From Bacteroidota bacterium (lineage in GTDB: Bacteria > Bacteroidota > Rhodothermia > Rhodothermales > UBA10348): a DNA stretch of 64,000 nt. The notes below the pieces were generated by a model. The model saw nothing but the letters and a program-made list of their open reading frames with translations, had not been told where the DNA came from and ran no database searches. Location of the stretch: positions 24,329-88,328 of the forward strand of contig JAQBZH010000001.1 of assembly GCA_027622005.1 (NCBI GenBank). The letters are read 5' to 3'. Each line of letters begins with the position of its first letter. The stretch's first letter is position 1. Below are positions 23,850 through 37,405 of the stretch, in pieces. The translations under genes were made by a program, and so were the position numbers.

Positions 23850-24804
23850 TGTCGTCGTCATTGGAGCTGGACCCGTGGGACTTGCCTGCGCGATTGAAGT
23901 GTCTAGACGGGGAATGTCCTCTGTTGTGGTCGAAAAGGGTTCTCTCGTAAATTCATTAGTCGGATACCCAACCAATATGGAGTTTTTTTCAACTCCAGAG
24001 CTATTGGAAATCGGTGGATATCCTTTGATAACTTCCCACTACAAGCCTCTTCGGGAAGAAGTCATCGACTATTATCGACGGGTGGCTTCGCTTGAAAACC
24101 TTACAATAAACCTGTTTGAAACCGTGGTATCTGTTGATGGAAAGGTTGGCCATTTTCAGGTAACAACGTCTAAAAACCAGATTTCCTGTCGATATGTAGT
24201 GGTTGCAACCGGTTTTTTTGACCATCCGAACACCTTAGATATTCCTGGGGGCTCCCTTCCTAAGGTTACTCACTACTTTAAAGAGCCCTTTGCGTACGTC
24301 AGGCGCAATGTTGCCATTATTGGAGCCAAGAACTCAGCCGCGAAAGCAGCCCTTCAATGTCACCGATACGGTGCAAAAGTGACGATGATCGTGCGGGGTC
24401 CCGAAATAGGACCCAATGTTAAATACTGGATTCGTCCGGATTTAATTAATCGCATATCCGAAGGCTCGATTGTGGCCCATTTTAATTCGAATGTGACTTC
24501 GATCGAGCAAAACACACTCCGTTTTACATCTATCGACGGAGAATATGAAATTGAAAACGATATTGTATTGGCGCTGACTGGATATCACCCGGACTATGCA
24601 TTCCTGCGGCAGATTGGCATTGGCACCGAAGCAGATGTTTCCGAAACGCCCATTCACAACCAGGAAACGTTTGAATCGAATCGGGCGGGTGTCTTTTTGG
24701 CTGGCACCGTCTGCGGTGGGCGCCATACAAGCCGGTGGTTCATTGAAAATGGAAGACACCACGCGACTGTTATTGCCGATCAATTGTCAAATTATACCGC
24801 CTGA
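23839..24804 (+). CDS. ypdA: YpdA-family FAD-dependent disulfide reductase (putative bacillithiol disulfide reductase)
   Basis: MNVDVVVIGAGPVGLACA Rossmann motif, then the typical YpdA N-terminal stretch (VNSLVGYPTNMEFFSTPELLEIGGYP). The ORF is open from 23818. Confidence 0.78.
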   Translation: MNVDVVVIGAGPVGLACAIEVSRRGMSSVVVEKGSLVNSLVGYPTNMEFFSTPELLEIGGYPLITSHYKPLREEVIDYYRRVASLENLTINLFETVVSVDGKVGHFQVTTSKNQISCRYVVVATGFFDHPNTLDIPGGSLPKVTHYFKEPFAYVRRNVAIIGAKNSAAKAALQCHRYGAKVTMIVRGPEIGPNVKYWIRPDLINRISEGSIVAHFNSNVTSIEQNTLRFTSIDGEYEIENDIVLALTGYHPDYAFLRQIGIGTEADVSETPIHNQETFESNRAGVFLAGTVCGGRHTSRWFIENGRHHATVIADQLSNYTA

Positions 24805-24816
24805 TCACAAATCCTG

Positions 24817-26982
24817 CTATTCAAGGGCCGATACAATTTGAGCAGCGAGCTCATTTTTCGGGTTGATTCTTAGAGCTTTCAGTGCCGAGCTCTTAGCAGC
24901 CGCAAGCTCGTCGTTCCTGAATTGAGCTAGTGCAAGTTTTGACAGCAACCCGTCATTTTCGGGGTTAGTAGCAACAGCACGTTTAAACATGGATACCGAC
25001 TGCGGATATTTCTCATTGCTCAGATACAGCGTTCCTAAGTTGTCTAAGGACTCGGTATGAACCGGAATACGCGAAACAGACAGTTGCAAAATGGATTCAG
25101 CCTTAGAAATAAGATTCTGTTGGATGTATACGAGTCCCAAATTGCTCATCGCGCCTCCATGAAAAGGATTCAGCTCGATGGCACGCTTAAGATTGGATTC
25201 GGCCAATTTGAATTCACCTTTCCTCAAAAAGGCAGTTCCCAGATTATAAAATCCTGTATCATTCCACTTTTCATTCGTGATGGCCTTTTTGTATTCAGCA
25301 ATTGCCTCTTCGATACGATTTCTCGTTTCCAAAAACCGTCCTAGGTTAAGGCGAATGTCCGTTAGAGACGGCTGAACTCGAAGCGCCTCGCGGTAGAGCT
25401 GCTCCACTTTGTCCGGAGACTGCCGAATTCCTTCATAGGCCTGGGCCAAAGCGTTAAGCCTTTCCGCCTTGGTGGGATCCATGCGAATTGATTGCTCCAA
25501 CGAAGGGATTGCTTCGGTGTATCGTCCGAGTAAGATGTGTGCAAAACCGTGCAAATAAAAGGCTTCGCTAACGGTTTGGTCTTTCTCAAGCGCTACTCCA
25601 AGCAGTTCTATAGCACTCTCAAGGACTTCAGCTTGTCTTGTCCGTTGCCCCTCAGTAACAAGCGCCATACCCCGATAGAGATTGGTATTAGGACTTTCGT
25701 TTTGATCCTTTTTAAAAACGGCCGTCAATATCGGTTGCTGATGAACCGCCACAGGCGCCGTTTCCGGATCTTTCACGACCCTAATCCAATGATCCGTAAA
25801 GGCCGAATGCGGAGCCTCAATGAGATCCGTTTTAGGCATATGGCAGGTTATGCAATTTGCACCCGTGCCGTGATCCTTTCTCGCCATCTCGGTTGAAAAC
25901 GAAGCTACCAAGGATGCTGAAGCGTGGCAACTCGTACAGGTACTGTTAAAGTACTCCGGGCCTTTTGTTCTAAATCCGGCATGAGGATCATGACAAGTGG
26001 TACACTGAAGGGGTTCGCTTAAATTTTGCGTTTCAAGAAAACAGGCACTGAGTTTCATCCGGTCAGCGTGAGAAATCACCCCGATACCTTGTGTAGCCGA
26101 TTCATGCGCTGCAAAAAGGGCGATATAATCATCGAGCTTCTGAGATGGCCGGAAATCGAAAGGAGTCTTTCCATCTCGTAAAAGCGAAACGGAGGCGTTT
26201 AAGTGACATTGTTGACATACATCCAATCGGGCATCCAACCGTAAATGAGCCGGATTAACAATGGAAAGGTCAATTTCGCCTCCACTAGATGGAGATGCCA
26301 AACGTTCTGCGACGTGAATACTTCCTGGCCCATGGCACCGCTCACAACCTATCCCTTCCGGCATTTCCAAATACTTGCCGTTGGTTTGCGGCACACTTTC
26401 GGGATAACTGTTGTGACATGACATACATCGATCTACAATCTTGCGATCAAAACGCTTGTTAGACACCCTGTAGCCCGGGCTAAAATCCCAACGCCTCTTT
26501 TGGGTGTACCACGAAACAGGAAGTTCGTAAAACCACCCATCTTTTTCGGATAAGTACGTTCGAGCAGACGTTCCTGAGCCCACCACCCAGTCCATTCGAC
26601 GGGATAATTGATGGGTTTGCCTACCCCTGGAGTCCAGTAAATACTCTGTCAAAAAATAGCCTGAATCGGAGGCCACTGTTTTGTAGTGAAAGCCTGAAAT
26701 GGAATCGATTACCACTTCAGATCCAAAATCTTCCACTGCCTTGTCCACGGTCATTCGAAACATGGAACGCGCCATCCCATGCTCCTGATAACCCTGATAT
26801 TCGTCTTCGTGACAGTCGAAACAAGTCACATCGCCAACAAAGGACGCGTTTTCGGTGACGTTTTTAAAAATCGGTTGTACGTAGTCGTCGTCCGATGGAT
26901 TTTCGACCGAAGAACGCCCACAACCGACAAACACGGTTAAAAGGCTAATTAATATGATGGAATAGAGATATAGGTATTTCAT
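24817..26982 (-). CDS. heptahaem c-type cytochrome lipoprotein fused to a C-terminal TPR domain
   Basis: Seven CxxCH motifs (CFDCH, CMSCH, CERCH, CQQCH, CTTCH, CTSCH, CITCH). Lipobox FVGC after MKYLYLY. About 270 aa of TPR repeats at the C-terminus. Start set at 26982 because codons 26983-27006 are the terminator hairpin. Confidence 0.85.
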   Translation of the reverse strand: MKYLYLYSIILISLLTVFVGCGRSSVENPSDDDYVQPIFKNVTENASFVGDVTCFDCHEDEYQGYQEHGMARSMFRMTVDKAVEDFGSEVVIDSISGFHYKTVASDSGYFLTEYLLDSRGRQTHQLSRRMDWVVGSGTSARTYLSEKDGWFYELPVSWYTQKRRWDFSPGYRVSNKRFDRKIVDRCMSCHNSYPESVPQTNGKYLEMPEGIGCERCHGPGSIHVAERLASPSSGGEIDLSIVNPAHLRLDARLDVCQQCHLNASVSLLRDGKTPFDFRPSQKLDDYIALFAAHESATQGIGVISHADRMKLSACFLETQNLSEPLQCTTCHDPHAGFRTKGPEYFNSTCTSCHASASLVASFSTEMARKDHGTGANCITCHMPKTDLIEAPHSAFTDHWIRVVKDPETAPVAVHQQPILTAVFKKDQNESPNTNLYRGMALVTEGQRTRQAEVLESAIELLGVALEKDQTVSEAFYLHGFAHILLGRYTEAIPSLEQSIRMDPTKAERLNALAQAYEGIRQSPDKVEQLYREALRVQPSLTDIRLNLGRFLETRNRIEEAIAEYKKAITNEKWNDTGFYNLGTAFLRKGEFKLAESNLKRAIELNPFHGGAMSNLGLVYIQQNLISKAESILQLSVSRIPVHTESLDNLGTLYLSNEKYPQSVSMFKRAVATNPENDGLLSKLALAQFRNDELAAAKSSALKALRINPKNELAAQIVSALE

Positions 26983-27026
26983 AAACAAAAAAGAGGGTCG
27001 AATCACGTTGTGATTCGACCCTCTTT
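26983..27026 (-). terminator. strong hairpin plus U-tract between the PorV-like gene and the cytochrome gene
   Basis: Perfect 15-bp stem 26992-27006 / 27010-27024 (AGAGGGTCGAATCAC / GTGATTCGACCCTCT) with a 3-nt loop. On the minus strand it is followed by TTTTTTGTTT running directly into the ATG at 26982. Confidence 0.6.
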
Positions 27027-27049
27027 CGTTTCAATCGAATGATACAGAA

Positions 27050-28096
27050 TTACAGGGTAATAGCCGCTGTAATCATGTCTACATTGTCGAAGTAGTCTGT
27101 CGTGTAACGTCGCGAATAATCTACCTGGAAGCGAGTGCCACCAAGATCTAGATCAAGGCCGGCGCCAAAGTTGGTGCCGTTAAAGAATGACAGATCGTCG
27201 TCTGAAATGACGTCTAGTCCTCCACGGAGGTATAGAACGTCAAACAGACCTAGCTCAACACCGCCTGAAAACTGATCCTGATCAAACGAATTCGACCGGA
27301 AGTTTCCAAGAACGGTAACTACAGCACCAGCACCCATTTCACGGGTGTAAGAAACGCCGAAGTTTAGTAGTGAAGGAAGTTCAACCCCTTCATTTTCCAA
27401 CTGCAATGCGTTTGCGGCCGCACCGGAGGATTGATCTCTTAACTGCACACGGCGAGTAAGACCAACACCACCGTACTCGATCTGAGTACCGACGTTTTTA
27501 AGAGCTACACCCAAACGAAGACCAGATTCACCCACTACGTAGGTCATACCGGCATCGATGGCAACTGCGGATGCAGATACGTCATCAATCGCTTCATTGA
27601 CTAATTTCAATGTAACGCCGGCTGAGATACGATCCGTGAAAACACGGGCGTAGGTTAACCCAACGGTCATAAACGTTGAGGTATACGTAACTGAGCTGAT
27701 TTCTGGAGCGCTTTCCGTTTGTACCGGAATGTCTCCAAAATCCCAAGTCGTTACTGTAAAGGCCAAGTTGTTGGAACCGAAGTTCTGGCCAATACCAAAG
27801 TAGCTGACACCAATGTCGGCTACGTAGTTCATACGGCTAAAAATAGCCGATGTACCGGTGTTCATCGCGAGTCCGGCTGGGTTTGAATAGATTGCTTCCA
27901 ATCCGTTCATTCCGGCCATGCCACCCGTTGTAGAAGCGCCTAGCGAAGCATTGCGAGCCGTTACCGGCACTAGCAACTGAGATGCACCCGCCGTACCACG
28001 GCGTTTGTCATCCCCTGCATTCGCGTCCAGCACACTCATGCCTAATAAGGCAATCACTACAAGTGCGTTCAGAATATTTCTGGACAGCTTGTTCAT
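27050..28096 (-). CDS. PorV/PorQ-family outer-membrane beta-barrel
   Basis: 348 aa. Signal peptide, then the N-terminal family pattern (GTAGASQLLVPVTARNASLGAS...AIYSNPAGLA). Alternating beta-strand sequence throughout. Confidence 0.65.
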   Translation of the reverse strand: MNKLSRNILNALVVIALLGMSVLDANAGDDKRRGTAGASQLLVPVTARNASLGASTTGGMAGMNGLEAIYSNPAGLAMNTGTSAIFSRMNYVADIGVSYFGIGQNFGSNNLAFTVTTWDFGDIPVQTESAPEISSVTYTSTFMTVGLTYARVFTDRISAGVTLKLVNEAIDDVSASAVAIDAGMTYVVGESGLRLGVALKNVGTQIEYGGVGLTRRVQLRDQSSGAAANALQLENEGVELPSLLNFGVSYTREMGAGAVVTVLGNFRSNSFDQDQFSGGVELGLFDVLYLRGGLDVISDDDLSFFNGTNFGAGLDLDLGGTRFQVDYSRRYTTDYFDNVDMITAAITL

Positions 28097-28158
28097 ATTT
28101 AAGTCCTCTTTTTGATAATCAGTTTCGTCATCGAACGTCTACTGAATCTGGGGTTTAG

Positions 28159-28180
28159 GGTTGGCCCCACGGGGCCAACC
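28159..28180 (-). other. intercistronic GC-rich stem-loop with no U-tract
   Basis: GGTTGGCCC / GGGCCAACC 9-bp stem, located between the 1154-aa gene and the PorV-like gene. Confidence 0.4.
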
Positions 28181-28198
28181 TTGACCTCCAAATTTCAA

Positions 28199-31100
28199 CT
28201 AGAAAGCGTTGAGCTGTACACGTTTCTTGATAACACCAAATTTCAGCACCTTTTCACCAACGTTTGGCACATCAATGTGAATGATATACATACCACTCGC
28301 AATTGGAAGGCCATCGGTTGTTTGAAGATCCCATGGGAACATGGCACCCGCACTATTCTTCTCAAGGGTACGAATAAGCGTACCTGAAAGAGTAAAGATG
28401 CGGATGGTTGCCTGATTTGGCATGTTTGTGAAACGAACCTGATCAACAAGCGCTGTTACTTCGTATGAAGAAGCACCTTTGTATGGGTTCGGAACGATAC
28501 CAATCTCATCCATGGCAGCTTTTGCTTCAGCTTCGTCCCGGTCGCGAGCGCCCAGGCCGTCAGTTGACATCGTAAAGCTGTCACCAGGTTGATTTGGTTT
28601 CGTCGTATTAATACGGAATACCGTTCCTGCTTCTGGCATTCTTGATGTGTAGCTCTCAAAGCCGCCCGCAACGGCTCCACCATTGAAGTTCACGAACACG
28701 ACACGCGACAGCGTTTCTCCACCGTGAGCTCCAGCAGTGCTAGGATCTGCAATTGCGCTAGCTAACCAAGCATTGTATCCTGCTCCAGCTGGTCCAGGAG
28801 TCATGTCGTTCGGAAGGTACCAGTAATTCCAATCCGTCATCGGATCGTTAGTCGCACCGGAAGCAGGGCTATCTGTTTCCGTTATATCCCATCCTCTAAC
28901 GCCGTCGGCGTCCAGTCCGGCCACAATCATTCGAACATCGTCCGATGGATTGTTAGGAGTAGCAATACCGATTCTCCAAACTTCGAATGGAATGGCGTAC
29001 ATACTGGCTCCGTCTCCGAAACGGTCGTATCCATAACATCCTCCTGCTACAGGAGTCGCATAAATTTCGTCCGCAGCTTTAGCTGCCACCCAAGCTGCGT
29101 GACAGGCTGGGGTGAAGCGCACTTCGAAATCGTAAGGAACGAGTCGGCTCCATCCATGACCACGTCCCGTGACTGCACGAGCTAGGAAGCCGTTGGTGTA
29201 ATTTCCGGTGGAGGCGCCACCGGCGTGGATACCCCAAGCGCCAGCGTCTGTGGACTGCGGACTTGGACGGTCATTATAAAACAAGGCGCCATCTCCAACA
29301 AGCGGGAAGCCGTTGAAACCGAAGGATCCTTGACGTACTGGATTCAAAGGACCAGATGCGTTAGCAACGGTCTCAAATCCAAGGAAACCATCAGGAGCCC
29401 CGGCTACGTCTAGAGACAGACCGTCAAACTGAAGCACGTCAATACCCTCTGGACCTGCAATTCCGGCATTCGCTGCAACTGCGGCACCATCAAATACTTT
29501 CGTTCCTGTCGTGAGGTCAACCACGTCGTAGGTGACGGCAGTTGCAACAGAGGACTTCGAAGCATCTAACTTGTTGTGGAATGAAGCATCATTGTCACGT
29601 TCAGTTGGATCGTTTGACTCAATGAATGTGAGAGCGCTTTTTCCAGCAAGTTCGGCTGTAAAGAACTCAACTTTGTAGCTGTGTCCTGTTATGGCAGCGG
29701 CATTAACAACTCGAAGTGAAGCACCACCGTTACCGACGTTTGTTTCAGCTCCGACTCCGACAATAGCCGTTCCGGAAGCGGCCGCAGCGACTGCTTCCGG
29801 AGCAATCACTTTGTCCGTTTTCTGCGGAATAACTGTTACGCGAGCAATCGGACCATGATACGCCTTCGGATATGAATCGAAGTTATACGCATATGCCTGT
29901 ACTCCAAACTGGTAGTTCTTGTAGTTGGTAAGACCAGAAACAAGCATTGAGTGAGCAACGCCTACGTCCGTTCCTTCAGCTGTAACAACAAGAAGGTCAC
30001 CACCATCCGTATCAATAATGCGAGTCACGCCATTTGCTCTATCAAATGTGCCGATGACTACTCCGTCCTGATCTTGGGGATTTGAGTACTGATATACCTT
30101 GTATCCTTCAAATGCGTAATCGCAATCTGTTTCTGAACAGAACGGATCTTTTACATTGTAAGAATCAAGATAGTTGTTATCTGTAGTACGGTATCCCCAC
30201 TCTAGTAGCACTGATCCATCTGCAGACGTCGTTGTAATACGAGGAGCATTTGGAGGAGAAGGCACCACGAAGTTGATGTCAAAAGCGGCCTGAGCTACTC
30301 TGTCATCAGACTTCATTTTTGTTACCGAATCAAGGTTGTCAAGACCAAAGCTGGTCACGATACCAAAAATAATGGTCTGCTCATCATTCGGCTTAACCGT
30401 AAACGGCCCAGTTGACAAAACAAAACGACGGTCAGCAGGAGCAATAGCGGAACCAGCATTGTCTGAGTTCAACTCTGACCAGAATGCTGGTGGGTGTCCT
30501 GGAAACATGAAACTCGTTACGATATTGGAAAATCCAAGTCCGTTTCCACCGAGGGTAAACGGCTGTCCATCTTTCCAACGGCCACGCATGAAGTTGTACA
30601 TGTCAGCGCCGTTACCCGGGTCACCCTGGATACCACCACCGTTGTTGTAGAAAGCAAACGAGGTCATTTTTAGGCGCTCATCGGCTTCATCAACAACGCC
30701 GTCTTTGTCGTCGTCTTTACCGTTGTCAGTCACAAGTGGACCTTGGAAGAAGTCGTAACCTGCTGCAGGCGGAGCCGCACCGTAGTTACCATCATCATCA
30801 TTGTCCGCGTTGTAAATGAAACCCATTCCCAAAACGGAGTCGGAACCGACGTAATCGTCAAATGCCGCGCCAAGGTCCGGATCCGAGAAAATACCAAAGT
30901 AGGTGTTTTCGAGTGGAACCGTGCCTTTGTAGAACATGCGGTATTTGTAGAACGTGGAATTTCCAAGCGCTCCAGCCGTGTTAAAGGCAAAAGCAGAGCT
31001 ATGAACTTCAACGCCCATTGGAGGGGTTGACGAACGGTTGTGGGTGTTACCTTTATCATTCATAATCCACCATAGCATCTGGTCGCCCAAGATGGCTGGT

Positions 31101-31663
31101 CTTTCACCAGCTGCCAGGTTGATTTTACGATCTACGCGGCTAGCAAGAGGTTGACCGAGGAGGTCAATCGCTTCGCCATTTGCGTCAAGCGTTGGGGCGC
31201 CAAGTCCTGTAGGCCAGTCCCGAAGGTCTGGTGTTGCAGTACCACCGCCATTGAAGGAGTTGACATCGTCTTTGTTTATTTTCCAAACACGATCCCAAGG
31301 AGTACAGTTGGCTGGGGAAGATCCATCATCATTCAGAGGACCTGACCAGAATTCGAAGGGGCCGTACGTGGAACCAGCAAGCCTAAGCTGTCCGGCAACC
31401 TGACCACCCATCCAAATTCCTGAAGCAAAAATGGCCTTGTGACCACTTCCTTTTGGAATTTCATATACGTCAGGAGAACCACGATAGAATAACTCTCCGT
31501 TATTCGGAATACGGGCGCGCACATTGTTTATATCGAGGTAGGCCTCGCCAATGGACGGCTCACAGTTGCCGACGCTTTGAGCTCGAGCACCTGGGGTGCT
31601 CAAGAACCCAATTGCAAGCGCGGCAATGAGGAAACTTAATTTTCTAATGTTGTGCATAGTCAT
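28199..31663 (-). CDS. large secreted protein of unknown function with a T9SS type-A C-terminal sorting domain
   Basis: 1154 aa. Signal peptide ending ARAQ. About 450-aa N-terminal domain with acidic Ca-loop-like motifs. FN3-like segment (PSPPNAPRITTTSADGSVLLEW...). The last ~95 aa match the Por secretion tail pattern (IVPNPYKG...ATIRIFTLSGTLIRTLE...WDLQTTDGLPIASGMYIIHI...KFGVIK). Confidence 0.8.
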   Translation of the reverse strand: MTMHNIRKLSFLIAALAIGFLSTPGARAQSVGNCEPSIGEAYLDINNVRARIPNNGELFYRGSPDVYEIPKGSGHKAIFASGIWMGGQVAGQLRLAGSTYGPFEFWSGPLNDDGSSPANCTPWDRVWKINKDDVNSFNGGGTATPDLRDWPTGLGAPTLDANGEAIDLLGQPLASRVDRKINLAAGERPAILGDQMLWWIMNDKGNTHNRSSTPPMGVEVHSSAFAFNTAGALGNSTFYKYRMFYKGTVPLENTYFGIFSDPDLGAAFDDYVGSDSVLGMGFIYNADNDDDGNYGAAPPAAGYDFFQGPLVTDNGKDDDKDGVVDEADERLKMTSFAFYNNGGGIQGDPGNGADMYNFMRGRWKDGQPFTLGGNGLGFSNIVTSFMFPGHPPAFWSELNSDNAGSAIAPADRRFVLSTGPFTVKPNDEQTIIFGIVTSFGLDNLDSVTKMKSDDRVAQAAFDINFVVPSPPNAPRITTTSADGSVLLEWGYRTTDNNYLDSYNVKDPFCSETDCDYAFEGYKVYQYSNPQDQDGVVIGTFDRANGVTRIIDTDGGDLLVVTAEGTDVGVAHSMLVSGLTNYKNYQFGVQAYAYNFDSYPKAYHGPIARVTVIPQKTDKVIAPEAVAAAASGTAIVGVGAETNVGNGGASLRVVNAAAITGHSYKVEFFTAELAGKSALTFIESNDPTERDNDASFHNKLDASKSSVATAVTYDVVDLTTGTKVFDGAAVAANAGIAGPEGIDVLQFDGLSLDVAGAPDGFLGFETVANASGPLNPVRQGSFGFNGFPLVGDGALFYNDRPSPQSTDAGAWGIHAGGASTGNYTNGFLARAVTGRGHGWSRLVPYDFEVRFTPACHAAWVAAKAADEIYATPVAGGCYGYDRFGDGASMYAIPFEVWRIGIATPNNPSDDVRMIVAGLDADGVRGWDITETDSPASGATNDPMTDWNYWYLPNDMTPGPAGAGYNAWLASAIADPSTAGAHGGETLSRVVFVNFNGGAVAGGFESYTSRMPEAGTVFRINTTKPNQPGDSFTMSTDGLGARDRDEAEAKAAMDEIGIVPNPYKGASSYEVTALVDQVRFTNMPNQATIRIFTLSGTLIRTLEKNSAGAMFPWDLQTTDGLPIASGMYIIHIDVPNVGEKVLKFGVIKKRVQLNAF

Positions 31664-31716
31664 CCGTGCTTTTCGGTCTATAATATCTGCTCAAAATCTA
31701 AAAAAGTACCGAGCTC

Positions 31717-31745
31717 CTTGTGCGGGCCAAAAAGGCCCGCACAAG
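31717..31745 (-). other. intercistronic 12-bp GC-rich stem-loop, a possible partial terminator or processing site
   Basis: CTTGTGCGGGCC / GGCCCGCACAAG with a 5-nt loop. On the minus strand a T6 run follows 12 nt later. Confidence 0.45.
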
Positions 31746-31762
31746 TTGCGTCAGCATTTCAC

Positions 31763-34700
31763 TTAGAAGTCAAGACGAACACCAATGCGCGTTAGGCGCG
31801 GAATACCGTAGTTACCAAGACTACGAGTACGGTGTAGATACATTGTTTCAGTTACAGGTACAGAACCTCCTAGGAACTGCTGTCCACCTGGGGTAGCAAG
31901 GAAGCCGTCATCATCAGGAAGACCCGTTGCGCGCCAAACACCAATGATGTTCTGGCCATCGAATAGGTTTTGAACCCAAACGAATGCAGAAAGCGTGGTG
32001 CGTGGTCCAACAGAGAACTTACGATCGACACGAAGGTCGATACGATTCTGCCATGGCATGCGGGCTTGGTTGATTCCACCATCCGGAATTGGAGCTTTTG
32101 ACTCAATTCGGCTAAATGCCTCAAGCTGTCCCGTGTATGGCTGGCCTGACTTTGCGACTGCCAAGATGTTGACTCCGAAGTTCTCAAATAGCTTCATACC
32201 ACCAACGGTTGGGCCTTCTCCGGCTCCAAGACGATAGTCAAGGGAGACGTTAAAGGTGTGACGCTGGTCGAATGCTAATGGGCTGATGAAGTTTGGTGGT
32301 GTTTCATCAATCCAAGCAATCGTGCTGGTCGTCGAAGAAGACGAACCTGTACCCTGAGCAAACGATAACGTGTAGTTTACGTTGGCGGAGACGTTGTTCG
32401 TTCTACGAAGATCGAAGTCGATTTCTAGACCTTTAACGGTACCGAAGTCCGTATTACGGACGGAAGTAACCCCGTTTGGATAAGCATCGCGACGGTCGTC
32501 AATCTGGATCAGGTCTTCAATCTGACGGAAGAATCCGGAGATCGAAAGAGATGAACGAGCAGAAAGAACCTGGCGGAAGCCTAATGAGTACTCCGTTGTG
32601 CGCTCTGGGTCAAGGTCGTTGTTAGATCCACCGCTTCCTGAACCTGACATACCTTCCAGCGACTGGAATGCGCGGTCAGAAGGACGCTGTGCAACGCGGC
32701 CGTAGCTGGCGAAGAACAAAGCCTGATCCGTAACAGGGAAAGAGACCCCGAGACGAGGCATAACCGTAACGCGTGGTTCGTAGTCAACGAAAGAATCTTT
32801 CGTTACACGACCATTTAGCTGATGAGGTCTGGCTCCTGAAAGCAGAATGTTTCCTGCGATCGTTGGCTGGCCAGCCGCATCAAACCATTTGCCTTCACGG
32901 CTACGGAATCCAGCGACGTCAAGTCCGTTGTAATAAACGGCAAAGTCATCGCCAATTAGACCGTTTGAAAGACCAACTTCACCAGCGCGCTCCAGAGGAA
33001 GTGCTGAGTAGCGGTCGTAGTAGGTACGAACGTTGTTGTCAAATACGTCAACACGAACTCCCATATTCAAAACGATATCGCGGAATTCGATTTTGTCTTG
33101 AATATAACCGCCGTAATAAATCGGCTGGTGAGGTGCAACGTTGTAACTAGATAGTTGATCACCCTTAGCACTAAGTGCCAAAGGATCGTCATTGGCATCT
33201 AGGTCATTTACGTATCTATTGAGATCTTCTGAGTCTACTTCTTCGTCACCAAAAACGTTGTAGCCAACGTAGCTGGTTGCGCCTTCAAGCTGTGCCCAGG
33301 TAAGGTCATAGAAGTCAGAAACTTCTTCGCCGCTACCTGCGGTAACGCCTTCAGCACCTGGGGAATAAAGAGCGCCAGCGTCATCAAAATAGCGGGCAAT
33401 GGTACGACCACTGAGGCTATATGAGCGGTTGGTTTGTTGCTCGAATTCTCCACCGAACTCAATCTGGTGCAAGCCAATCTGCGTTGCAGCCATCGCATTG
33501 AAGCGAAGTTGGGTACTGTGGAACTGGAAGTAACCAGCAGGACCGGTGCTTCCGGGAGGAGCTACGAGTTTACCAATGGTCTCGCTGTTGTTAAACTTAC
33601 CATCTTCCCAACGATAGGTGTATTGCGGCTGATTCGCCATGATAGGCGTGTCGTCAGCAGGATCGTCGGTGCCGTGATTGTCTACACCAACCTGGACAGA
33701 CGTGAACGTAACGTTTTTGTAACCACGGTTGGTCGCATATACGTCGTTGTCAAAATCTCCCCAGTTCATAACGTCCGCGCGTCTGGTCAAACCAAAGCGA
33801 GGATCGTAGTTTTTACCTGACCGATCGGTATAGTCGAACTGAAGTTGGTAAAACGTAGAGTTGGAAAGATAATGCGTCCATGTTGCGAAGAACTGACTGT
33901 CGAAACGATCATTCGCTCCATAGTTATCCGGAGAAAAAACGTTCAGCGTTGAAAGGCCTTCGCCTTCTGAACCTACGTAACGTCCACCTACGCGCATGCG
34001 TACGTTTTCCATAACGTTGAAATTCAGATTTCCGTTAACAGCGAATCTGTTGTACGAAGTGCCTCTTTTTGCCTTTTCGACAGTGAAATCGTCAGCGGTT
34101 AAGAAGTTAGCACTTTCAACGAAGTTGAAATTAACGGAAGCAGGATCGACGCCGGCAGGAACGCTAATGACCGTTCCGTCTCCAGCAGTGATCTGATCGT
34201 TAACAATAACGACGTGTCCATCAGCGTCAACAGGCAAATAGGTCTCGCCCATAGATGCTGGAACCGGAATCAAAACCCTGTTTCCATCAGCATCCAATCC
34301 CTGCATAGAAGCCGGGAATTGGCTCATTTCCTCAATCGTGGCGCTGCTAGCTTTCAACTGACCAATTGCGCGAGGATTGCTATCCCCTTGACTTAGGTAT
34401 TCAGCTGCCAAGAAGAAGTTGACGTTGTCTCCCATAACCGGACCACCAATCGCAGCAGAAGCCAGATTGTATCCGAAATCATCTAATGATTCTGAGGTAA
34501 TGCCCTCAAATGAACCAAAGAATTTCGAAGAACCTGACTTAGTTGTGATATTGATGATTCCTGACATGGCGTCGCCATACCGAGCGGAGATGTTACCAAT
34601 AATCATCTCCTGCTCTTGAATGGCGGACTGTGGAAGTGCGGTAGTACCGACCACTTTCACACCGTCAATATAATATGTAACCTCAGCACCGCGACCACCG

Positions 34701-35200
34701 CGAACGTTGAGTGCACCTGAACCTTCGTCATTAACAACACCGGCTTGGATGGCAGCAACGGCTGCGGCTCCACGCACTGGTAAGTTAACAATTTGTTCAG
34801 CGTCAACGATCTTAGGAACACCAACGGCGTCCTTCTGGATCAGCGGGCGTTCATATTCAACGACGATTTCGCCAAGGTCAACACCTTCTGTGAGAGCGAA
34901 GTTTACTTCCTGGGTATACCCAGAAGAAACTTGCACACCAGCAACGGTTGATTCTTGATAACCGACGAATCGAGCTTGAACACTGTATGAACCAACCGGA
35001 ACACCGATGACGAAATAATTTCCATCGTTGTCCGTTATGGTTCCTAGCGTTGTGCCGACTAAAATGACCTGTGCGCCTGGTAATGGATCTCCAGTACCTG
35101 CGTCGGTCACTACTCCCGTAATTTTACCCGTGTTTTGGGCAAATACGAGGGCCGGCGTAGCTAGCAGCATGAGTACAAGCATGCCCCATTTACGTAACAT
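31763..35200 (-). CDS. TonB-dependent outer-membrane receptor with an N-terminal CarboxypepD_reg-like domain
   Basis: 1145 aa. Signal peptide. GKITGVVTDAGTGDPLPGAQV...GNYFVIGVPVGSY domain. Plug motifs (NVRGGRG...YYIDGVKV, ARYGDAMSGIINITTKSG). Terminal RIGVRLDF. AGGAGG Shine-Dalgarno 7 nt upstream. Confidence 0.9.
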   Translation of the reverse strand: MLRKWGMLVLMLLATPALVFAQNTGKITGVVTDAGTGDPLPGAQVILVGTTLGTITDNDGNYFVIGVPVGSYSVQARFVGYQESTVAGVQVSSGYTQEVNFALTEGVDLGEIVVEYERPLIQKDAVGVPKIVDAEQIVNLPVRGAAAVAAIQAGVVNDEGSGALNVRGGRGAEVTYYIDGVKVVGTTALPQSAIQEQEMIIGNISARYGDAMSGIINITTKSGSSKFFGSFEGITSESLDDFGYNLASAAIGGPVMGDNVNFFLAAEYLSQGDSNPRAIGQLKASSATIEEMSQFPASMQGLDADGNRVLIPVPASMGETYLPVDADGHVVIVNDQITAGDGTVISVPAGVDPASVNFNFVESANFLTADDFTVEKAKRGTSYNRFAVNGNLNFNVMENVRMRVGGRYVGSEGEGLSTLNVFSPDNYGANDRFDSQFFATWTHYLSNSTFYQLQFDYTDRSGKNYDPRFGLTRRADVMNWGDFDNDVYATNRGYKNVTFTSVQVGVDNHGTDDPADDTPIMANQPQYTYRWEDGKFNNSETIGKLVAPPGSTGPAGYFQFHSTQLRFNAMAATQIGLHQIEFGGEFEQQTNRSYSLSGRTIARYFDDAGALYSPGAEGVTAGSGEEVSDFYDLTWAQLEGATSYVGYNVFGDEEVDSEDLNRYVNDLDANDDPLALSAKGDQLSSYNVAPHQPIYYGGYIQDKIEFRDIVLNMGVRVDVFDNNVRTYYDRYSALPLERAGEVGLSNGLIGDDFAVYYNGLDVAGFRSREGKWFDAAGQPTIAGNILLSGARPHQLNGRVTKDSFVDYEPRVTVMPRLGVSFPVTDQALFFASYGRVAQRPSDRAFQSLEGMSGSGSGGSNNDLDPERTTEYSLGFRQVLSARSSLSISGFFRQIEDLIQIDDRRDAYPNGVTSVRNTDFGTVKGLEIDFDLRRTNNVSANVNYTLSFAQGTGSSSSTTSTIAWIDETPPNFISPLAFDQRHTFNVSLDYRLGAGEGPTVGGMKLFENFGVNILAVAKSGQPYTGQLEAFSRIESKAPIPDGGINQARMPWQNRIDLRVDRKFSVGPRTTLSAFVWVQNLFDGQNIIGVWRATGLPDDDGFLATPGGQQFLGGSVPVTETMYLHRTRSLGNYGIPRLTRIGVRLDF

Positions 35201-35210
35201 AAGCTACCTC

Positions 35211-35621
35211 CTAGTGAAATGATGTGTGGCTTAAAGTGCTGCAGCTCATTCCCACATCGGAACGAGTGCAATTTCTATCGTGCAAAACACCCGCATTAAG
35301 CGCCGCATTCAAAATGAAAGCAGAACTCGATACAGGTGTCGTTTGCGATTTCCGTGCAATGCACGAATTTCTTTGATGAACGGAAACGTTCAAAGATGGG
35401 ATTGGCCCTAAACGGAATCCAAAATCCGGATCAAAACCCGTGACCTGTTTTAAAGCAAGGTCCAGTAGTATGGCGGAATCTTTCTGCAAATAGTCTTTCG
35501 ACCATTTGATCTCCAGCACAGCTCCAACAGGCGAAGTGGCGAGGGCATAGCTATCGCAACTAAATTCAGGTTTCGCTTGAAAGGTGGGGGTTGAAAAGCT
35601 GTATCGAAAATCCAACGGCAA
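35211..35621 (-). CDS. doubtful ORF within the long leader of the TonB-dependent receptor gene
   Basis: 136 codons open from a TTG. It has no signal peptide, no motif and Ser/Thr-rich low-information composition. It ends 10 nt before the receptor ATG. It may be non-coding leader RNA or a gene remnant. Confidence 0.2.
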   Translation of the reverse strand: MPLDFRYSFSTPTFQAKPEFSCDSYALATSPVGAVLEIKWSKDYLQKDSAILLDLALKQVTGFDPDFGFRLGPIPSLNVSVHQRNSCIARKSQTTPVSSSAFILNAALNAGVLHDRNCTRSDVGMSCSTLSHTSFH

Positions 35622-35664
35622 TCCTTTTTCGTTAATCGTTTCCTAACATCAGAATCGGTTTCTA

Positions 35665-35693
35665 AATATAGATGGGGTTTTCTCGTTTGTCAA
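35665..35693 (-). promoter_or_regulatory. sigma70-like promoter (TTGACA-N17-TATATT) upstream of the receptor module
   Basis: The minus strand reads TTGACA aacgagaaaaccccatc TATATT (plus 35693-35688 and 35670-35665). The spacer is exactly 17 nt. The predicted TSS near 35658 gives a ~455-nt leader. Confidence 0.5.
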
Positions 35694-35806
35694 GGGAAGA
35701 TGAATGCCCGTTTAACGGGTATTTCCTTTTGCCAAAAACGCGTCGATTATCCGCTCTTTCTTCAAATACCGTTCTACGGGAACGATAATACACATTAAAT
35801 TTGAAT

Positions 35807-37405
35807 TCAAGGCATGAATTCGAGCATGCACACCCCGTTGACCCCCGAGATGTTAGCAACTTCGTCCAGGATATTGCGGGAAATGGCCTGGTCTACCGAA
35901 ATAGCTGTGAGCGCTTCATCGCCCGGTCTCGATCTTCCTAGGGACAAAGAACCGATGTTTACATCGTTTTCAGCCAGTATTTGCCCCACTTTGGCCAACA
36001 TTCCAGGCTTATCCGTATTTCTATAAAACAGTACTTGCCCTTCGGTTTTGATTTCAACGTTAAACTTATCCACGGAAGTTATTCGCCCATCATCACCCGA
36101 AAAAATGGTGCCGGCAATCGAAAGGGTCTCTTGACGTCCCTGCAGTCGAAGTTCAATCAGGTTTGAAAATGACTGTTCTGATTGAAAGGTTTCGACATCT
36201 ACTACCAGTCCGCTTTCCGACGCGATCACTTCAGCGTTCACGAGATTGACCGGTTCTTTCCAATTGGTTGACAGGAATCCCTTCAGGGCGACCACTTTCA
36301 AAACATCTTTATACTTTCTGGGAATGTCGCCGTGACAACGGGTAAGGAGGCGCTCCACCGGTTGTTGAAAAATTTGATGGGCGGCATAGCCAAGTCGTTC
36401 GGCAAGGTGGATGAATGGCTTTACCTCCGGCTGAGCCGACATGCGGACGGCTATTGCATTCACTGCCGTTAAGACAACTTCCCCTTTCAGAGCGTTGATG
36501 ACCTGCTCCGTAACTTGCACGGCTACCTTTTCCCCAGCTTCCTCTGTTGAAGCTGCAATATGGGGCGTGGCTACAACATTTGGATGCCTGATCAGATTAA
36601 AAATGGTCTCTGTGGGCGGTTCTGATGAGTAGACGTCCAGGGCTGCCGCCCCAACTTGTCCGGACTCCAGGGCCCTCAATAGCGCCGATTCGTCCACAAT
36701 GCCGCCCCTCGCGCAATTGACAATGCCTACCCCAACTTTGCATTTAGCTATCGATTCGTCACCCAGTAGTCCTGCTGTAGCTGGAATGAGCGGCGTGTGG
36801 ACCGTTATATAGTCAGAGCGCGAAAACAAGTCGTCCAACTCGACCAATTCAATTCCCATTTTGACTGCGGCCTCTGAAGTCAGCATCGGATCGTATCCGA
36901 TGACCGTCATATTAAAAGCGAGGCAACGCTCCGCGACCGCTTTGCCAATTTTTCCGATTCCAGCAATACCAATGGTTTTGCCTGATAACTCAGAACCTGT
37001 GTAAGGCTTTCGATCCCACTTCCCAGACAATAGGGAAGCTGCAGCCGGGGAAATTTTGCGAGCCATGGCGAGAAGCATGGCAAGCGTATGCTCGGCGGTT
37101 GAAATCGTGTTGCCTTCCGGTGCATTTAGCACTAGTATTCCTTTCTTGGTGGCCAGTGGAATATCAACGTTATCGACGCCAACGCCCGCTCTCCCAATGG
37201 CAACAAGCGATTTTGCTGCATCCAAAAAGGAAGCGTCAATCGATGTTCCGCTTCGAATGATCCACCCGTGAAATTCAGAACATCGATCCAAAATGTCTTC
37301 CCGCGTCCATTTCGACCCGTCGACCACTTCAAATCCGGCATCCGACAATAGGGTAAAACACAACGGGTGAAGCGAATCGGTAATTAGAACTCTTTTTTGC
37401 ATCAT
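35807..37405 (-). CDS. serA: D-3-phosphoglycerate dehydrogenase (long form with ACT domain)
   Basis: 532 aa. GRAGVGVDNVD, GIAGIGKIG NAD motif, and a C-terminal ACT-like region. Confidence 0.92.
   Translation of the reverse strand: MMQKRVLITDSLHPLCFTLLSDAGFEVVDGSKWTREDILDRCSEFHGWIIRSGTSIDASFLDAAKSLVAIGRAGVGVDNVDIPLATKKGILVLNAPEGNTISTAEHTLAMLLAMARKISPAAASLLSGKWDRKPYTGSELSGKTIGIAGIGKIGKAVAERCLAFNMTVIGYDPMLTSEAAVKMGIELVELDDLFSRSDYITVHTPLIPATAGLLGDESIAKCKVGVGIVNCARGGIVDESALLRALESGQVGAAALDVYSSEPPTETIFNLIRHPNVVATPHIAASTEEAGEKVAVQVTEQVINALKGEVVLTAVNAIAVRMSAQPEVKPFIHLAERLGYAAHQIFQQPVERLLTRCHGDIPRKYKDVLKVVALKGFLSTNWKEPVNLVNAEVIASESGLVVDVETFQSEQSFSNLIELRLQGRQETLSIAGTIFSGDDGRITSVDKFNVEIKTEGQVLFYRNTDKPGMLAKVGQILAENDVNIGSLSLGRSRPGDEALTAISVDQAISRNILDEVANISGVNGVCMLEFMP

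Follow-up and report, generated by a model that had tools for sequence, protein, structure and literature searches.

A conserved Rhodothermales gene triad: a predicted operon for a TonB-dependent transporter, a protein with a variant type IX sorting domain and a PorV/PorQ-family barrel

In the Porphyromonas gingivalis type IX secretion system (T9SS), PorU and PorZ are held at the cell surface by the outer-membrane barrels PorV and PorQ (PMC5562754). PorP/SprF-like barrels encoded beside type B cargo proteins are the cognate shuttles of these cargos, and one such barrel serves three orphan cargos (PMC12618676, PMC9143113). A further protein, PorF (PG0534), resembles TonB-dependent receptors and is needed for type IX function, its own function being unknown (PMC12704123). 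Here, we describe a three-gene locus in a 64,000-nucleotide stretch of the genome of a Bacteroidota bacterium of the order Rhodothermales (contig JAQBZH010000001.1, positions 24,329 to 88,328 of the forward strand; this whole stretch is referred to as the window). The locus encodes, in this order, a TonB-dependent transporter (the receptor), a large secreted protein that ends in a variant T9SS sorting domain (the cargo) and an outer-membrane barrel of the PorV/PorQ family (the barrel). It is a real feature that is conserved across Rhodothermales and uncharacterised, and the combination is new to the literature: no account of it was found in literature searches covering Rhodothermus, Salinibacter and type IX secretion.

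As in the PorQ-PorZ and PorV-PorU pairs of P. gingivalis, a predicted surface protein is paired here with a PorV/PorQ-family barrel, and the sorting domain of the cargo is closest to that of PorZ. The locus differs from these pairs in that the N-terminal regions of the cargo are unrelated, with no PorZ match beyond the sorting domain and no C25-type Cys/His dyad, that the cargo is multi-copy, that a TonB-dependent transporter is co-encoded, and that the scores against the equivalog models remain under their cut-offs. With the PorP/SprF barrels and type B cargos of Flavobacterium johnsoniae it would share a private barrel gene beside the cargo, orphan cargos relying on one shuttle and a signal residing in the sorting domain; the barrel, however, belongs to the PorV/PorQ family here, and the cargo ends in a type-A-like sorting domain instead of one of type B. 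SusC/SusD and other transporters with a capture partner are comparable in that a TonB-dependent transporter extended by a CarboxypepD_reg domain is co-expressed with a large, presumably surface-exposed protein, but the receptor is not of the SusC/RagA type and the cargo, judged from its sequence, is neither a lipoprotein nor SusD-like and would be delivered by the T9SS and held by a barrel. The likeness to PorF lies in a receptor-like outer-membrane protein linked to PorV, the link being genetic in our case and a co-purification in Cytophaga hutchinsonii (PMC8564354); compared by size and description, PorF (92 kDa) differs from the receptor (1145 residues).

Conservation of the triad across Rhodothermales

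The three co-directional minus-strand genes are separated by spacers of 99 and 102 nucleotides (nt), as the initial annotation of the window had reported and as the listing of open reading frames (ORFs) confirms, and all three proteins carry an ordinary signal peptide at the N-terminus. The genes are predicted to form one transcription unit with a common promoter, leader and terminator. A scan with one genome per species yielded 555 relatives of the cargo, and 80 loci were examined as pieces of about 23 kb by tblastn with the proteins of the window and by ORF calls. Homologue searches comprised the best matches listed, so that their reach beyond Rhodothermales is limited accordingly. Gene order was counted in the 54 Rhodothermales loci with both flanks present, among which 43 displayed the order receptor, cargo, barrel (this number includes L033 and L070, in which the ORFs overlap), two contained the cargo-barrel pair alone (L005 and L021) and nine contained the cargo alone, often in tandem. 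In line with this, the triad was found in the same order in all four contexts that were seeded with the receptor, including that of the cultured Rhodocaloribacter litoris. Two of these four triads were located in other neighbourhoods, beside menaquinone genes and a DNA ligase, so that the triad moves as a unit. Throughout, the genes stayed together with their order unchanged down to approximately 39% cargo identity. An arrangement that recurs in 43 of 54 and in four of four loci is not due to chance, and the census bears out the syntenic module that had been proposed from the window. In L021 (9947–18194), a cargo gene, a barrel gene and a second cargo gene lie in succession without a receptor gene upstream, which shows that the cargo-barrel pair is able to duplicate independently.

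The locus had at first been taken for an accessory one. Judging by its conservation throughout the order and its position amid housekeeping genes, it is core instead: the gene upstream of the operon in the window encodes a serA-type dehydrogenase, and the remaining genes of the window include those for MetH, transketolase, MenD/E, TrpE, RecQ and MgtE. A wider context was common to many triads, with a dehydrogenase gene upstream and a gene for a cytochrome fused to tetratricopeptide repeats (cytochrome/TPR) and a ypdA gene downstream. The barrel and receptor families are similar in size, with 540 and 471 matches, and the cargo family is larger, with more than 1390 full-length homologues, the latter mostly from Rhodothermales and bearing 'T9SS type A sorting domain-containing protein' as their fullest public name.

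The barrel, the cargo and the receptor

The barrel had been recognised by a PorV/PorQ signature, and its score against the family model NF033709 (102.7 bits, cut-off 90, residues 36–343) is in agreement with this. Against the equivalog models it remained under the cut-offs, both for PorQ (NF033711, 76.3 vs 220 bits) and for PorV (NF033710, 33.6 vs 250 bits). A profile built from 26 barrel sequences gave F. johnsoniae PorV as its sole match in the PDB (6h3i_F, E = 3.7e-8), and orthologues are publicly named 'PorV/PorQ family protein'. On the strength of these matches we assign the barrel to the PorV/PorQ family. A reading of the protein as FadL was rejected, there being no FadL among the PDB matches of the profile.

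The last ~110 residues of the cargo were its only part to be matched by NCBIfam. A type A C-terminal domain had been predicted here, and this prediction was confirmed with respect to the T9SS-type fold: the C-terminal beta-sandwich of the AlphaFold2 (AF2) model (residues ~1055–1145) matched PorZ (5m11) in Foldseek with 21% identity and a probability of 1.0 over 124 columns, and PorZ was also matched by sequence (NF052228, 40.2 bits vs a cut-off of 260, residues 1027–1135 only). The assignment to type A was less clear, with a borderline score against TIGR04183 (20.1 bits, cut-off 23) and weak PF18962 matches in four of 16 cargo-family members. All Rhodothermales family members of ~1150 residues, orphans included, have a variant ending in common, PNPYKGAS.YE...ASGMYLIH...KFAVVKKRxQLNx[F/Y], and distant proteins with the same head domain carry the canonical type A ending (...YPNPF...GVYFYRL...VVVR). 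The extra tail, KKRxQLNx[F/Y], is conserved and has an aromatic end. In this it is similar to the signal found at the C-terminus of outer-membrane barrels; residues 1149–1154 are of low confidence in the model. Among 79 family members, the sorting domain was the best-conserved domain of the cargo, with a mean pairwise identity of 0.66 compared with 0.60 for the head, 0.51 for the Fn3-like domain and 0.41 for the middle region. The barrel had been called a private PorV paralogue, and this idea gains support: the variant sorting domain, being the best-conserved domain and absent from distant relatives, speaks for it, as do barrel and receptor families of similar size beside a larger cargo family.

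Up to six or more cargo copies were present in one genome. Orphan cargo paralogues, lone or in tandem and without receptor or barrel, were seen in L039–L046, L064 and L066 (e.g. L042, 9842–17266; L046, 6262–18307). In those of OZ253559.1, the middle region and the sorting domain had 96–99% identity and the head only 75–86%; two of its orphan ORFs appear to lack part of their N-terminus and are possibly in decay. The pattern of the orphans could reflect diversification of the heads, gene conversion at the 3' end or decay; the sequence identities among paralogues are those to be expected if variable heads are carried by a stalk and anchor that stay constant.

No family had been nameable for the N-terminal part of the cargo, and Pfam likewise matched nothing in the protein at E <= 0.01. 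Over 16 members of the cargo family, Pfam found fn3, FlgD_ig and Por_Secre_tail only, and searches of Pfam, NCBIfam and the PDB with the single sequence and with an 86-member profile returned nothing besides Fn3 and the sorting domain, the profile giving no PDB match at E <= 1. The full-length AF2 model (predicted local distance difference test score, pLDDT, 85.6; predicted template-modelling score, pTM, 0.72) shows a distinct block at residues ~470–612 that has Fn3 matches in Foldseek, in agreement with the Fn3-like segment noted earlier. The middle region that follows contains a disordered loop (676–704) and is the most variable part of the family. Foldseek searches with the full-length model were swamped by generic Fn3 arrays, and the head was therefore modelled separately, which gave a confident model (pLDDT 93.4, pTM 0.92) with weak fold matches only. 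The best of these were to dextran dextrinase, to glycoside hydrolase (GH) families GH116, GH94 and GH149 and to cyclic glucan synthase, with GH15-type enzymes also among them; the E-values reached 5e-6 and the probability was ~1.0, but the TM-score normalised to the query (TMq) was <= 0.38 and the identity 8–12%. These matches probably reflect the beta-sandwich N-terminal parts of GH15, GH94, GH116 and GH149 enzymes, from which the cargo differs in lacking an (alpha/alpha)6 domain and in showing no relation at the level of sequence. An enzyme of the GH15, GH94 or GH116 type was rejected on the same grounds, the cargo being mostly beta with too few helices for such a domain. Among Cys and His residues, only C34 and C120 were invariant in 86 cargo sequences, and the cargo therefore has no C25-type catalytic dyad. 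No confident match to an enzyme or adhesin family, an outcome named beforehand as counting against a capture role of the cargo, was obtained in the Pfam, PDB-profile and Foldseek searches.

Searched against 1.84 billion representatives, with clusters formed at 50% identity, the head recovered 6879 clusters at E <= 1e-3, of which 2286 reached E <= 1e-30; by this measure it belongs to a very large family of domains, for which Pfam has no model. In eight of nine architectures scanned, a type IX sorting domain was joined to the head. Minimal head proteins of ~550 residues consist of the head and a canonical Por_Secre_tail, as in the products of three tandem genes in L081 (8001–12985); elsewhere, the head is fused to Big_9, cadherin-like, leucine-rich repeat (LRR) or beta-propeller modules.

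The receptor has a signal peptide, an N-terminal CarboxypepD_reg extension, the TonB-box-like motif EIVVEYERP, a plug and a large barrel. The domains given in the initial annotation were recovered by Pfam, namely CarboxypepD_reg (70 bits), the plug as a borderline match (23.6 bits, cut-off 23.9) and the barrel (TonB_dep_Rec_b-barrel, PF00593; 79 bits, cut-off 27, residues 527–1079), and the C-terminus (...RLDF) ends in F as stated. EIVVEYERP is conserved between extension and plug, its likeness to a TonB box being judged by eye only. Many receptor orthologues matched the plug family PF07715, and a profile of the orthologues matched both the N-terminal extension and the plug of a SusC homologue, as well as the plugs of YncD, PqqU and FepA. 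Plug and barrel thus identify the receptor, as far as its sequence can, as a true TonB-dependent transporter. A SusC/RagA identity was rejected, since TIGR04056 scored far under its cut-off (46.3 vs 368.25 bits, residues 26–225 only). The initial annotation had portrayed the module as a SusC-type system without its SusD. It was right that a SusD-like lipoprotein is missing from the module, and none was found by Pfam and NCBIfam in the neighbouring genes or in the receptor-seeded related loci; its premise of a SusC-type receptor was false, and because the receptor is not of the SusC/RagA type, the absence of SusD is no anomaly. Many orthologues of the receptor matched the Oar-like barrel family PF25183 and the outer-membrane barrel family PF14905, neither of which was matched by the receptor of the window at E <= 0.01.

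Proposed function and rival readings

From the gene order, the operon signals, the conservation, the family assignments and the variation of the sorting domain, we infer a model of type IX export, tethering on a cognate barrel beside a transporter and ligand capture for import, which is the reading we favour, tentatively and in the knowledge that it falls somewhat short of being probable. A strong promoter would drive a transcript through a structured leader able to sequester the ribosome-binding site. The cargo would be exported by Sec and then by type IX secretion through its variant C-terminal sorting domain, which would be kept and would dock on the co-encoded PorV/PorQ-family barrel, a putative dedicated shuttle and anchor for this class of sorting domains. 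Thus tethered, the cargo would project its beta-rich head on the Fn3-like domain and stalk, beside the co-expressed TonB-dependent transporter. In what is pure conjecture, the cargo would associate physically with the receptor and its head would capture a ligand, possibly glycan-like, for TonB-powered import. Orphan paralogues, whose heads diverge while stalk and sorting domain are nearly identical, would rely in trans on this one barrel. That the cargo and the barrel are a cognate shuttle and anchor pair is moderately supported, and strong synteny is the one line of evidence that points to an association of the receptor with these two. A bolder version appears doubtful to us: the T9SS-delivered cargo on a dedicated PorQ-like barrel would serve a TonB-dependent transporter of non-SusC type as its extracellular capture lid, forming a three-part uptake machine with heads that can be swapped via orphan paralogues and with a new ligand-sensing leader RNA as its switch.

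Several points weigh against the model of tethering and capture. The link of the receptor to the cargo is weaker than that of the barrel, because cargo paralogues occur singly, as tandem copies or next to a barrel gene but no receptor gene, as in the receptor-less cargo-barrel pairs (L005, L021) and the nine cargo-only loci, and the distant head-domain genes that were looked up were tandem or lone, without receptor or barrel. NCBI labels cargo orthologues as type A, and the general PorV might therefore serve the cargo. The weak fold likeness of the head does not establish carbohydrate binding, the contacts among the three proteins are hypothetical, and the 'dedicated' role of the barrel is putative. 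If the model were true, type IX secretion and TonB-dependent transport would be connected by a conserved operon, and the idea of specialised shuttles, so far shown for PorP/SprF barrels and type B signals, would come to include the PorV/PorQ family together with a variant signal that is type-A-like. The triad would also offer a natural genetic route to the question of why PorF, a TonB-dependent-receptor-like protein, is needed for type IX secretion and associates with PorV. The head family, for its part, is a very large one without a Pfam model, at ~6900 clusters at 50% identity. As the operon is present in the cultured R. litoris, these ideas are testable in culture.

PorF is also the starting point of a rival reading that fits the same facts, in which the receptor, in a putative PorF-like role, and the barrel form a dedicated site of export and attachment for the cargo family, and in which the receptor may import an attachment glycan and would not take up nutrients that the cargo has captured. 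Normal type IX function requires PorF, whose partners are unknown (PMC12704123, PMC5445135), the PorF homologue of C. hutchinsonii co-purified with PorV (PMC8564354), several cargo paralogues occur per one receptor and one barrel, and some receptor orthologues match PF14905. We nevertheless consider this reading unlikely, in view of the size of PorF (92 kDa, PMC5445135) compared with the 1145 residues of the receptor, of a plug that is present in the receptor and, according to one source (PMC8564354), absent from PG0534, and of cargo-barrel pairs and orphans that are located away from any receptor. These same pairs and the cargo-only loci would be accommodated if the functions were independent, with cargo and barrel forming an adhesin or surface-coat unit and the receptor being an ordinary nutrient importer that is merely on the same transcript. 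Fusions of the head to adhesin-type modules (Big_9, cadherin-like, LRR, beta-propeller) are in line with this, and the tandem arrays with diverging heads look like variable surface proteins. It is made improbable by a triad order that stays constant down to ~39% cargo identity, by the joint relocation of the triad to other neighbourhoods, by the presence of both partners in every receptor-seeded context sampled and by the common promoter, leader and terminator.

The cargo and barrel might alternatively be part of the core machinery, filling in Rhodothermales the place of PorU-PorV or PorZ-PorQ. The sorting domain has PorZ as its best NCBIfam match and the barrel has PorQ as its best equivalog, the cargo has a weak Foldseek match to PorU (6za2_B), and the locus is core and conserved. 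The genes porU and porV are adjacent in several Bacteroidota. PorU is, moreover, similar in size (128.2 kDa, PMC5445135). All the same, such equivalence is very unlikely: the scores are far under the cut-offs (PorQ 76 vs 220, PorV 33.6 vs 250, PorZ 40 vs 260), as is that against PorU (NF033707, 16.1 bits vs 420, C-terminus only); the cargo does not have the C25-type dyad, C34 and C120 being its only invariant Cys or His residues; the head model matches the N-terminal regions of glycosidases and not PorZ, which is matched by the sorting domain alone; and a genome may contain up to six or more cargo copies, with clusters of the head domain numbering in the thousands. Least credible, and extremely unlikely in our view, is a receptor that moves protein outward, as Oar of Myxococcus does for PopC (PMC6434023). 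Many receptor orthologues match the Oar-like family PF25183, but the receptor of the window does not at E <= 0.01, the adjoining cargo already has a type IX sorting domain, which would make a second exporter needless, and no PopC-like substrate is encoded nearby.

Transcription unit, leader RNA and flanking features

The features of the operon are listed in Table 1. The promoter-like site is located ~465 nt upstream of the start codon of the receptor gene, and both of its hexamers were invariant in nine related loci in which the proteins are only ~60–80% identical. The intrinsic terminator lies directly 3' of the stop codon of the barrel gene; of 57 related loci, at least 35 had a comparable hairpin followed by a T-run at this position, with varying sequences.

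Table 1. Coordinates of the triad, its signals and the domains of the cargo in the window.
Feature	Position	Strand	Basis
TonB-dependent transporter (receptor), 1145 amino acids (aa)	31763-35200	-	ORF listing
Cargo (secreted protein), 1154 aa	28199-31663	-	ORF listing
PorV/PorQ-family outer-membrane barrel with signal peptide, 348 aa	27050-28096	-	ORF listing and NF033709
Promoter-like site TTGACA-17-TATATT, 11/12 consensus positions	35665-35693	-	sequence
Structured 5' leader RNA, ~460 nt (5' block 35511-35660)	35201-35660	-	conservation, fold, covariance
Intrinsic terminator, 18-bp stem with 8 GC pairs, then T-run	26989-27027	-	sequence
GC-rich hairpin GGTTGGCCCC-GTG-GGGCCAACC, 9-10 bp, no T-run, in the cargo-to-barrel spacer	28159-28180	-	read from sequence
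Cargo signal peptide, residues 1-28, ...PGARA/QS	31580-31663	-	translation; low pLDDT, N-terminal helix in model
Cargo head, residues 29-465, beta-rich	30269-31579	-	AF2 model, no Pfam model
Cargo Fn3-like domain, residues ~470-612	29828-30256	-	weak Pfam fn3 in 8/16 members, model strands, Foldseek Fn3 matches
Middle region of the cargo (residues ~620-1050), unassigned, mixed alpha/beta	28514-29806	-	model secondary structure
Variant T9SS sorting domain of the cargo (residues ~1055-1154), ends ...KFGVIKKRVQLNAF	28202-28501	-	NCBIfam, Foldseek, alignment
Conserved tail KKRxQLNx[F/Y] of the cargo	28202-28225	-	
Multihaem cytochrome c fused to TPR repeats, 729 aa	24817-27006	-	

Between promoter and receptor gene, conservation of the leader at the DNA level exceeded that of the coding regions. 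RNAalifold predicted 77 pairs, with compensatory changes at 16, as well as an invariant last helix that pairs with the Shine-Dalgarno sequence (GGAGG) at the 3' end of the leader. In one helix, compensatory changes were found at six of nine pairs, and 91.5% of cells were paired compared with 30–43% in slid controls. The leader of the window had a minimum free energy z-score of -3.4, and each of 100 shuffles folded less well. With a covariance model built on the 5' 150 nt, 13 copies were detected in 1.38 Mb, four of which were outside the training set; all were located just upstream of a receptor gene and belonged to one Rhodothermales clade. Rfam gave no match at E <= 1 in the region 24000–36000. 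These data make the leader a candidate for a new cis-regulatory RNA. A 136-aa ORF in this region (35211–35621, minus strand, TTG start) was rejected as a gene, as it has no family match and no conserved ORF is present in L003 and L023; where tblastn seemed to show it conserved, in L001 and L002, the conserved element is the leader RNA.

The GC-rich hairpin between the cargo and barrel genes may serve in processing, stabilisation or attenuation and in this way set the ratio of cargo to barrel. Just past the terminator of the operon lies the cytochrome/TPR gene, whose product contains seven CxxCH motifs. It was rejected as an obligate fourth member of the operon, being beyond the terminator and adjoining the triad in 25 of 49 loci, with other genes in its place in L086 and L088. 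This gene probably starts at the ATG at 26982, giving a protein that begins MKYLYLY... and has a lipobox-like VFVGC; this ATG is 6 nt past the T-run of the terminator and would leave the gene without room for a promoter of its own.

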